In this document: positions 6,001 to 9,000 of the stretch, in pieces | Layout: each line of letters opens with the position of its first letter | Position numbering within the stretch: the stretch's first letter is position 1 | Virus record (IMG/VR): IMGVR_UViG_2675903324_000008 | Span: 1 to 9,456 of that record | Length of the DNA stretch: 9,456 nucleotides | From: a virus | Lineage: Duplodnaviria > Heunggongvirae > Uroviricota > Caudoviricetes | Reading direction: 5' to 3' (one strand) | Position numbers: made by a program

Positions 6001-9000
6001 GCTACTGGTGCTGTAATTTTTTCTATACTGTACTTACCAAAGAAAGGAACAAGATATTTGTATACTTCATATTCGATATTATACAGCGTAGGTTTCCGCA
6101 ATTCAGATCCCTTTTTAAAAGCGAACCATGCATTAGCAACAGCTTCAAATGTCTGTAGATTTTTTAGTGACATCTCAATTTTACGATTTTTCTTCTCCGT
6201 CACTGGATCAACTCCACGTGCAATCATTCGCCGAAGTTCATCACGTACTTCCCGTGCTTCCGCGAGTGAGAATTCAGGAAAACGTCCTATCGTGTATGTC
6301 TGCCGTTTCTTCGTTATCGGATGGCTATAACGGAAACGCCACACTTTCCCACCGGCTTTACTCACATTCAGCAATAAACCGAACCCATCATAAACGGCAT
6401 AGTCCTTTTCACGTGGTTTCATCCCCTTAACTTCAGTCACGGTTAATGGCTTTACCGACATCTATCGCCCTCATTTTTTAGTCCGTCATGTAGTCCATTC
6501 AAGCCAATAACAAGCGATAAACTAACTCATTATCAAGCAAAGAGAGGAAACTCATAAAATCACAACTCATTGAAAAGACTATGAAACGACACCAGAACAT
6601 ACAAACAGGTAAGAAATGTACCCTACATCCAAAATGACGCAATCCGGGAATTTCGTGGCGTTCCGGTGATACTGCCGTCCGCCGCCGCCCGTTCACCTTC
6701 ACGAAGCCAGATCCCCTGGTTATTCAGTTCACGCTTCTGTTCCGGAGCAATCAGGCCGCGGCAGTGCGGACACATCAGGCGGGCCGCCTGCCCGGCAGCC
6801 ACAAAATCAGGGTTATTCCGGTAACCGGTCATGTTATCCATCACCGGCTGAAAATATTCCCCGCAGTGCGGACACGGCCAGTACCACCGGCGGCGGTCTC
6901 CCCGGTTATACAGTGACAGGATCCCCGTTGTTGGCGGTGCCTCATGTGCGCCGCCACAGCGCCATTTGGTGTCAGTGATATCCCGCCCGGGCGAACTTTC
7001 GACCAGGGTCATCCCCGAGGACATAAAGGTGGTGGTACGCTTTGAGGCCAGGGTGAAGGCATCCCCTTCACCGTCGACGTTCTCAGGAAAACGGTCATAA
7101 TCCGTTAGCGCCACACGACGGTAATCCGAAGAGGAAAATACAGTGATCGACGGCCAGCCAATTTTCAGGAATGAGCCGTCAAGAAACATTTTGTCGTGGA
7201 CGTTGTTGTCATTACGGGAAGGGCTGAGGCGCTTACTGACCTCCGGACTGTGGCGAAACGTCCTGGAAAGACGCGTTCTGGAATGCTCACGCGCCTTTGT
7301 CTCGGTCATCTGCACCACCAGCATATCCGCCGGATCACAGATGATGCCGTACACAATCCAGCCATCAATCAGCCCTTCGGTTTTCCCGGTTCGCGCAGGT
7401 CCCACAAACACCACCGCGTCATATTCACGGGCTGATAATGTATTAATGGGGTCAATCATATAGGGCGTCAGCGATGACTCCCACGGACCGGAAGTATTGG
7501 CTCCCCGTGGAACCCGCATATAACGCCTGATGGCTTCCGCTACTGGTAACCGGCCAGGTGGGCGAAACAGCGAGGCCACTTCGCGCCAGATATCGGATGC
7601 GCGGCTATGGCTCTCGTTCACCTGATTCACATATCGGCCTCATCACAACAGTCAATGACTGCCTTTTCCAGTGTGTCGCGGATCTCATCAACCACAATCT
7701 GTACTTCATTCAGTTGTGATGCGGTCCACCCCCTGTCCCTCTCCAGCCGGTCAGGCCAGGTTTCCAGTACCTGAACTATCGCTTTCACCACGACAGAAAA
7801 GGACCGCCTGACATCACTGACTGGCACAAGCTGAACAGTTTCATGCTGAAATTTAAGACGCTCGCGCTCGGACTGATACCATGCCTTCCGATCATGTGGG
7901 TTCATCTCTTCATCTTCGGAAGCCGGTGGTTTTTCCAGCAACGAAATAATCAAATCCGTCAGGAGATACAGTTTTTTCTTTTCATTACTGCCTGGTGCAA
8001 GAGGAACATCCGCCATTCTGGCGGCAACAGTCTGCCGGTGCAGACCTGAAAGGGCTGCCAGTTGATTAATATTTAACTTCATATTTTTCAGCTCGCCGTC
8101 CATTCACATCCCTCCACATAAACCGCTGAACAAAAGTGGCTCTTTTTTTTGTAAAGAAATGCCGCCATATAAAGATGTCGAACAAAAATCAACCACAACC
8201 ATCATCTTTTTAATGCTAAACACATTAAAAACAACAAGTTACACTAATGATGATGATGACGATAAAATCACAAAAATGCGCCTTTTTCCGCGCCGCCCGC
8301 CCCGTGTTCAGGCCCACCCCACCAGGAGGACCCGCAAGATGATAATGGTTATCATTTGTAATATAGTCCGGTTTCTTCCACCATCGCACCGGACCAGCGA
8401 CCATGAGGGGAGAACGCCGCGCTCCGTTTACGCGGTAAACCCCGGTGTGTATCGTTTTTGATTATCCCCGCACACTCTCGCAGAGGAGTCTCCCTGTCGG
8501 GCTGCGGTCTCTGTTAATGCAGGAATACGGCGACGATACGGCGCATCAGCAAAACTTAGTTCAGGCACTGAGTGCGGATATAGTCCTGTGCCCCTTCCAG
8601 CTGCTTCTGCATTGTCATCAACCGTTCTCTGAGGATGAAATAATCCCGTTCAGCGGTGTCTGCCAGTCGGGGGCCGGTTGCATTATCCACGCCGGAGGTG
8701 CCGGTGGCTTCACGCACGGTACCGGAGCAGGTGGCGTTGATCCGCAGGCGCTTACGACCAGCGGCAACATCAGCACGCAGAGTTTCATTTTCAGCTCTCG
8801 CATCGGCTAATTCCCTCGAGTATCTGGCATCAAGTGCAGCGACATCACGCTGGCGCACCTGCATATCAGTAATGGTTGCGTTTGCCAGCTCCAGCTCTCT
8901 GGCTTTTTTATCGCGCTGCTCTTTGTAGATGATGGCGTGAACACGGTAATGATTCAGCCCCAGACTAAGCGCACCACAGGCCACCAGCAGGACAATGATG

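Follow-up and report, generated by a model that had tools for sequence, protein, structure and literature searches.

A probable lambda-like cos site with a shortened interval between its nick flanks in a lambdoid Shiga toxin prophage, and its copies in integrative islands

A viral DNA stretch of 9,456 nucleotides (nt), IMGVR_UViG_2675903324_000008, is examined here; the whole stretch is called the window and all coordinates refer to it. Its minus strand most probably carries, at 8333-8171, the cohesive-end site (cos) of a long-tailed, Gifsy-2/VT1-Sakai-like lambdoid Shiga toxin (Stx) prophage, a site which would work as the cos of phage lambda does. We put the probability of this reading at about 0.85. 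The features of cos and of the terminase genes terS and terL are all read on the minus strand (Table 1). Taken by itself, variation in the right half of a lambda-like cos is expected biology, and this site is ordinary and widespread. Its modest interest lies in a series of lengths between the nick flanks and in the copies carried by satellites.

A preliminary description of this DNA had proposed a lambda-like cos architecture ahead of the small terminase gene together with a divergent cosN, and both proposals hold. Read along the minus strand, Rz (8556-9080, Pfam Phage_lysis) is followed by a non-coding stretch of 452 nt, an open reading frame (ORF) of 158 amino acids (aa; 7627-8103) and an ORF of 335 aa (6623-7630). 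From 8353 onward the non-coding stretch reads GATAACCATTATC (8353-8341), GGGTCCT (8333-8327), a 24-nt spacer, GGGCGGGCGGCG (8302-8291) and then CGGAAAAAGGCGCATTTTTG. The lambda order is GATGATAATCATTATC ... GGGTCCT, 23 nt and GGGCGGCGACCT, followed by CGCGGGTTTTCGC. The left nick context CG^GGGCGG (bp -2 to 6) is present, 8304-8297 reading CGGGGCGG as in lambda. Over the 12 bases counted from the putative nick (GGGCGGGCGGCG here, GGGCGGCGACCT in lambda) the first six are identical, as is the preceding CG, and the right half diverges. The spacer, which ends in GAACACG, measures 24 nt, compared with 23 nt in lambda (ending GGTTACG) and 22 nt in the mEp460 type. Repeats resembling those of cosB follow, and the terS start codon (ATG at 8103) stands 199 nt past the putative nick, close to the 190 nt which separate Nu1 from the lambda nick. 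The window contains the combination GGGTCCT-N20-26-CGGGGCGG a single time, and none of 200 dinucleotide-preserving shuffles contains it.

Between cosN and terS, a complex cosB is present as a sequence pattern: R3, an IHF site, an inverted R2 and R1. The lambda layout of R3, I1, inverted R2 and R1 appears to be reproduced with unrelated R sequences, to which we assign putative binding roles. Counted from the first base after the putative top-strand nick (8302 = position 1), the R3-like element covers positions 40-56, against 50-65 in lambda, and the cosB elements lie roughly 10-17 bp nearer to cosN than those of lambda. ATCGTCATCATCATCAT (8263-8247) and AAAGATGATG (8209-8200) form an inverted repeat. 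The IHF-consensus-like site between the R3-like and R2-like elements has one mismatch to WATCAANNNNTTR. It is found on the bottom strand, as is the sole one-mismatch match of the left-end cos segment of lambda (bp 79-91), and at the same relative position, TAACTTGTTGTTTTT aligning with lambda TAACTTAATGTTTTT. For the conserved block which precedes the R3-like element, we infer a function as nick flank and in spacing.

The functional unit was delimited by alignment of 28 unique phage-context and 30 unique island-context sequences. In these two sets, cosQ is at least 95% conserved. From a point shortly before cosQ to the end of TTCGACATCTTT, the phage and island consensus sequences agree throughout; outside this stretch they are unrelated. 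As the R1-like element is the last block common to phage and satellite copies, it is taken as the right boundary. Since independent satellite elements retain only the stretch that runs from cosQ through the R1-like element, this strong comparative evidence points to the ~165 bp of 8333-8171 as the selected functional unit. The interval first proposed, 8104-8330, covers the site but clips 3 nt of cosQ. The conservation also bears on whether the G-rich segment could be something else, such as a terS promoter or regulatory region, a G-quadruplex or an RNA element. Four G-runs do occur in spacer and core (GGGG, GGG, GGGG, GGG), directly upstream of terS. However, a promoter and terminator scan gave no minus-strand match, with total matches in the region at shuffle expectation, an Rfam search gave no match, and the segment is kept in satellites which have no terS downstream. 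We regard such a role as very improbable.

The site is common, and a close variant of it occurs in a phage which is packaged. Over 237 bp, it is matched in 700 of 5426 complete Escherichia coli genomes (~13%), 464 of which hold at least 80% of it, with up to five copies per genome; two complete genomes carry it at 100% identity. In one of these two, E. coli P15-385, the 237 bp stand in an Stx2c prophage ahead of an intact terS, a terL of 707 aa, genes for a portal and for a ClpP-protease/capsid fusion, and a complete lambda-like tail module. Phage Stx2_499 has the 237-bp site at 98.7% identity. Over a 1-kb region, the long-tailed Stx-converting phages Stx2_499, Stx2_14040, Stx2d_112808, Stx2_12E129 and VT1-Sakai/Sp15 match the window at 92-99% identity. 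For Stx2_12E129_yecE, experiments have demonstrated induction as well as packaging into DNase-resistant particles (PMC8112680). Its cos is an 11-nt variant (93% identity over 317 bp; see below for the lengths), and its TerL is identical at 704 of 707 residues to that of the P15-385 prophage, which has the 10-nt form. In a very common class of prophages, long-tailed and carrying Stx and effectors, this cos would set the ends of the virion chromosome. It would also determine which resident prophages and satellites share terminases, and hence the mobilisation of stx and other cargo from the 'defective prophage pool'.

Whether this particular copy is still in use has to be weighed against the state of its terminase gene. 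The terL fragment corresponds to nt 1-1010 of an intact terL of 2124 nt; the match stops after nt 1010, and the nuclease half lies beyond an inserted island, outside the window. The site could then be a dead relic of a defective prophage, and many lambdoid prophages of enterohaemorrhagic E. coli (EHEC) are indeed defective (PMC2669165). Decay is not seen, however, the 237 bp being 100% identical to copies in intact prophages. The core duplicated around the island means that precise excision would restore terL: in a related genome, L002, nt 996-1010 of the intact gene are present at both junctions of an island of ~11 kb. In addition, a terminase-defective O157 prophage was found packaged, which its authors credit to the terminase of another prophage acting in trans, the putative cos of the two being nearly identical (PMC2669165), and a genome may hold as many as five copies of the present cos. 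Taken together, these points make a relic improbable. With terL split by the island, the site could be cut only after island excision or by the same-class terminase of another resident prophage.

In the proposed mechanism, TerS dimers of the DUF1441 family would bind both the R3-like repeat and the inverted R2-like one, on either side of an AT-rich segment bent by IHF, and would thereby place the gpA-family TerL on cosN. The top strand would be nicked after CACG, which gives a left end beginning 5'-GGGCGG. By homology, the bottom strand would be nicked 10-12 nt downstream, leaving a G+C-rich 5' overhang. Packaging would run toward terS and terL and stop at the next cosQ-cosN. The cohesive end would be unlike that of lambda in its right half only, the part which varies freely.

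The gene downstream of the site, earlier named Nu1, is a DUF1441 terS related to Nu1 only at the profile level. Among PHROGs, the protein matches phrog_141 ('terminase small subunit', E 8e-65) and, secondarily, the phrog_57 of Nu1 (5e-10). The secondary match of Nu1 is in turn phrog_141 (6e-8), so that the cross-matches are reciprocal, and they are nearly full length. Both proteins contain the motif N..QLA...G....T, of helix-turn-helix (HTH) type. By these profiles, TerS appears to be a distant Nu1 relative, although, with no BLASTP match between the two, it cannot be called a Nu1 proper. An AlphaFold2 single-sequence model of TerS (mean pLDDT, the model's own confidence score, 56; N-terminal domain below 50) did not reach the quality needed to compare folds.

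The relation between TerS and cosB is informative for packaging specificity. In lambda-like phages, cohesive-end bp 7-12 vary naturally, and cosQ and the CG flanks are conserved (PMC4669245). In the case tested, the terminases of lambda and N15 showed no cosN specificity, packaging specificity residing in cosB and TerS (Feiss 2015, PMC4669245; Murialdo & Feiss 2022, PMC9026076). The present lineage follows this pattern, with cosQ, the CG flanks and the left half conserved and the right half variable, the right CG flank standing at a varying distance (see below). Two cosB classes follow one and the same cosQ-cosN: class A (the window) with ATCGTCATCATCAT, and class B with GGCACCATCACCACC, which replaces the R3-like ATCGTCATCATCATCAT; each class pairs with its own N-terminal allele of TerS. 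Between the TerS of the window (7627-8103) and that of the class-B locus L002 (13974-14450), the C-terminal half is identical and the N-terminal 75 residues diverge (76% identity overall), which argues for mosaic exchange of a cassette made of cosB and the 5' half of terS. Such co-variation is the pattern of lambda and phage 21, where specificity sits in cosB and the DNA-binding domain of TerS. It is consistent with a packaging specificity set by cosB and the N-terminal half of TerS, class A in the window. The idea that the divergent cosN brings a distinct cohesive-end specificity is thus half right: different sticky ends are predicted, but not a distinct terminase specificity, which the lambda/N15 work and the two-class pairing place in cosB and TerS.

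Several findings weigh against a lambda-like cos at this place. BLASTP gives no alignment between TerS and Nu1, and a local hhalign comparison of the DUF1441 TerS and Nu1 profiles is weak (probability 4.5%, E 0.009). With terL interrupted in the window, the locus in its present state is unable to package by itself. The candidate R3, R2 and R1 elements and the candidate IHF site were assigned from repeats, position and conservation. Among phage records which carry this type of cos, none is linearised there, and neither the IMG/VR scans nor a single metagenome scan yielded a contig terminating at the nicks. Lastly, the interval between the conserved nick flanks is 10 nt and not 12, so that some detail of the lambda model must differ.

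This interval deserves closer description. The distance from CG^ to ^CGC is exactly 12 nt in every other lineage sampled, namely lambda, Gifsy-1-like (GGGCGGCAGCGT), mEp213-like (GGGCGGCGCGCT) and mEp460-like (GGGCGGGAGCGG/T). The right flank CGCGGAAAAA starts 12 nt past the left nick in the mEp460-type cos and 10 nt past it in the window. Within the window lineage, there are 10-nt forms (GGGCGGGCGG in the window, GGGCGGGAGG and GGGCGGACGG), 11-nt forms (GGGCGGGCGGG and GGGCGGGTCGG; VT1-Sakai and Stx2_12E129_yecE have 11 nt) and a 12-nt form, GGGCGGGAGGGG, which is rare and found in island copies. The variants follow distinct haplotypes and are therefore real, not homopolymer sequencing errors. 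In the window, CG stands at positions 13-14 and also at 11-12, with the CGCGG flank from position 11; the 11-nt sister variant has GC at 13-14. The 12-mer first given as the counterpart of the lambda cohesive end is thus correctly aligned at its left nick context, but its 12 bases were obtained by counting and the homologous right flank is reached already after 10 nt. A literature search on the literal motifs GGGCGGGCGGCG, GGGCGGGCGG and GGGCGGGAGCGG matched no phage paper.

Two placements of the bottom-strand nick are to be compared. With a fixed 12-nt stagger from the left half-site, the end would be GGGCGGGCGGCG. This would fit everything known for the enteric lambda-like phages, all characterised members of which have 12-nt ends (PMC4669245). 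The variants would then differ by at most 2 bp in how far the R3-like element lies from the bottom-strand nick, a change within the 1-2 bp of cosN-cosB spacing which lambda tolerates (PMC4669245), and the 11-nt variant would be without its conserved CG flank. Alternatively, in a genuine cos site, the nick could fall directly 5' of CGCGGAAAAA, to give a 10-nt overhang GGGCGGGCGG here and 11 nt in the 12E129/VT1-Sakai variant; more generally, each nick would be set by its own flank or by a cosB anchor rather than by a fixed 12-bp stagger. The overhang is followed by CGC at positions 13-15 in every other lineage sampled, and here the homologous CGCGGAAAAAGG block begins at position 11. A 10-nt nick lies 30 nt from the R3-like element, against 31 nt in mEp460, while a 12-nt overhang would leave 28 nt, and lambda is sensitive to 3-bp changes in cosN-cosB spacing (PMC9026076). 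From cosQ to a 10-nt nick the distance is 34 nt, equal to that of mEp460. Under a fixed stagger, the 11-nt variant would read ^GCGG and lose the CG flank, yet Stx2_12E129_yecE is packaged. Shorter ends also have a precedent in the cyanophage Cr-LKS3, whose lambda-like cos has a measured 9-nt 5' overhang starting with GGGC and the same CG flanks on both sides (PMC9303873), although host and phage are unrelated. On the other hand, a symmetric TerL dimer suggests a fixed stagger, and nearly identical TerLs (704/707) would need to make overhangs of differing length. Furthermore, the CG flank of the window is kept by both the 10-nt and the 12-nt reading, so that sequence cannot choose between them. 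We hold a 10-nt overhang, as well as nicks set by their flanks, to be a serious possibility at somewhat less than even odds, and the 12-mer GGGCGGGCGGCG to be about as probable or slightly less so; the remainder goes to other placements.

A wider proposal may be put forward tentatively, although we consider it rather unlikely. The cohesive ends of this lineage of prophages from EHEC and Shiga toxin-producing E. coli (STEC) would not be fixed at 12 nt; nearly the same terminase would produce 10-, 11- or 12-nt overhangs according to G-rich indels between the flanks. The two nicks would be placed independently, by the left half-site and by a cosB anchor or the right flank, and not by a rigid symmetric TerL dimer, and satellites in the terL of the helper would exploit this tolerance with one or two mimic cos. 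A 10/11/12-nt series cut by one terminase would be a natural test of a fixed stagger against independent cosN nicks.

Two records with unusual ends or cores were encountered. The draft contig L209 (IMGVR_UViG_2548876943_000008) stops exactly at ...CACGGGGCGGGCGG (...CCTGAACACGGGGCGGGCGG), a hypothetical 10-nt end. It was rejected as evidence of an end because it comes from a total-DNA isolate assembly, in which a break in a repeat is likelier. The record of mEp460_4F5, an evolved derivative of mEp460 (L005, LR595868.1, 1-25), starts 4 nt before the putative nick and has a core shorter by 3 nt, GGGCGGGAGCGCGG against GGGCGGGAGCGGCGCGG in mEp460 (L007, 446-470), which could be an assembly artefact at cohesive ends or a viable variant with a 9-nt interval.

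Table 1. Coordinates of the cos elements, terminase genes and neighbouring features in the window
Feature	Sequence or product	Position	Strand	Remarks
Fur-box-like motif	GATAACCATTATC	8341..8353	-	7 nt upstream of cosQ; lambda counterpart GATGATAATCATTATC, bp about 48451-48466
cosQ, packaging-termination element	GGGTCCT	8327..8333	-	exact 7/7 match to lambda bp 48473-48479
cosQ-cosN spacer	CCTGGTGGGGTGGGCCTGAACACG	8303..8326	-	24 nt; terminal CG conserved, precedes top-strand nick
cosN core	GGGCGGGCGGCG	8291..8302	-	left half GGGCGG as in lambda; homologous right flank CGCGG from 8292; putative nick positions
Conserved block between cosN and R3-like element	CGCGGAAAAAGGCGCATTTTTGTGATTTT	8264..8292	-	imperfect A5-GCGC-T5 palindrome; conservation of at least 95% across phage and satellite copies
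R3-like element, candidate TerS site	ATCGTCATCATCATCAT	8247..8263	-	inverted repeat with 8200-8209; invariant in class-A copies
IHF-consensus-like site	AAACAACAAGTTA	8229..8241	+	1 mismatch to consensus; between R3-like and R2-like elements
R2-like element, inverted	AAAAAGATGATGGTTGTGG	8193..8211	-	inverted repeat I1; conserved in phage and satellite copies
R1-like element	TTCGACATCTTT	8171..8182	-	third, direct copy; phage and satellite consensus identical up to here, then diverge
terS	small terminase subunit, 158 aa	7627..8103	-	DUF1441, Pfam PF07278 E 8e-49; class-A N-terminal allele
terL, N-terminal fragment	gpA-type ATPase domain, 335 aa	6623..7630	-	Pfam GpA_ATPase E 6e-82; cut off by island insertion
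Island junction core	TTGGATGTAGGG	6621..6632	-	other-junction copy in L002 TTGGATGGAGGG; core TTGGATG(T/G)AGGG

Compared with the lambda cos as a whole, the site shares the complete cosQ, CG^GGGCGG, the order cosQ, cosN, R3, IHF site, inverted R2, R1 and terS, and a TerL of the gpA family. It differs in the 10 nt between its nick flanks, in its unrelated R sequences, in its DUF1441 TerS and in a TerL fragment with 24% identity to lambda gpA (BLASTP, E 1e-8). The natural cosN variants N15, phiD326, Gifsy-1 and the putative mEp213 and LLS sites (PMC4669245) obey the same rule of conserved bp 1-6 and free bp 7-12. However, they are substitutions in a fixed 12-bp interval, whereas the window lineage shows a length polymorphism of 10, 11 or 12 nt. 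A Gifsy-2-type head module and a DUF1441-type TerS are common to mEp213, LLS and mEp460. The window cos belongs to the Gifsy-2/mEp213/Sp15 morphogenetic group, for which cos sites have been inferred in the literature and we found no measured ones.

Putative cos sites of the O157 Sakai prophages Sp4 and Sp14 were given by Asadulghani 2009, who found them by alignment with lambda (Fig. S8, PMC2669165). That figure was considered as a prior description of the window cos and ruled out: in Sp4 and Sp14, cosN has the sequence of lambda and cosB differs, whereas the window type is Sp15/VT1-Sakai-like. The cos of Gram-negative phage-inducible chromosomal islands (PICIs; EcCICFT073 and relatives; Fillol-Salom 2019; Murialdo & Feiss 2022, PMC9026076) is likewise a satellite copy of the helper cosQ-cosN with helper-like spacing. 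Those PICIs have a single, different R3 read by Rpp-TerS heterodimers, whereas the island family described below takes over the entire helper cosB (R3-like to R1-like) and codes for a capsid protein of its own. The window site itself is not of the PICI type, which has a satellite location and a simple, R3-only cosB: it lies in phage context, with Rz upstream and terS and terL downstream, and has a full cosB.

The island which interrupts the prophage terL is an integrative element of about 11 kb, of which 1-6632 lie in the window; relatives are found in L002 (2212-12972) and L129. These relatives encode an integrase, AlpA-like HTH, BRO-N and Icd-like proteins, a RepA-type/AAA_25 helicase or primase and a single-stranded DNA-binding protein. 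A ClpP-protease/scaffold/capsid fusion protein of their own shares 51% identity with its helper counterpart. The island looks like a phage satellite lodged in the terminase gene of its helper; no paper on a satellite located within a terminase gene came up in a literature search. In the window, two ORFs of the island overlap on opposite strands, 3174-4223 (minus, 349 aa) and 3169-3690 (plus, 173 aa). Pfam gives no match for either, and PHROGs give none for the 349-aa ORF, the sole one scanned against them.

Close relatives of the island carry their own cos, whose consensus is identical to that of the phage from cosQ to the R1-like element. Nine loci (L129, L163, L167, L181, L183, L193, L204, L245 and L259) have two cos in the same orientation ~2.54 kb apart, the upstream one of class B and the downstream one of class A. 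In L129, the only locus with ORFs listed, the two sites (plus strand, 291-322 and 2828-2860) flank the capsid-fusion gene. With such a pair, helpers of both TerS specificities may be able to package the element. L002 combines a class-B host prophage with an island whose single cos is of class A. It had been suggested that the adjacent island might exploit the packaging signal of the prophage. The suggestion survives in spirit, although the exploitation works by mimicry, through cos copies which the relatives carry themselves; these relatives do not need the prophage cos. The own cos of the present island would lie beyond the left edge of the window.

Many enterobacterial loci were retrieved from IMG/VR by a scan for cosQ together with the cosN left half, the window lineage appearing in phage or island context. 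In phage context, the cos comes after the Fur-box-like motif and before terS; in small integrative islands, it comes directly after a terminator hairpin. Conservation of the Fur-box-like motif reaches at least 95% across the 28 unique sequences in phage context, and lambda-type phage copies have the motif as well. It is missing from the cos copies of satellites, where the terminator hairpin takes its place. A lambda-type cosN (GGGCGGCGACCT) also stands directly after a terminator hairpin in many IMG/VR loci (L010, L025, L030, L073, L105, L111 and others), the L111 copy having TG in place of the conserved CG after the overhang. The loci with such copies are presumably PICI-type satellites, and some of them carry two or three cos sites of different types.

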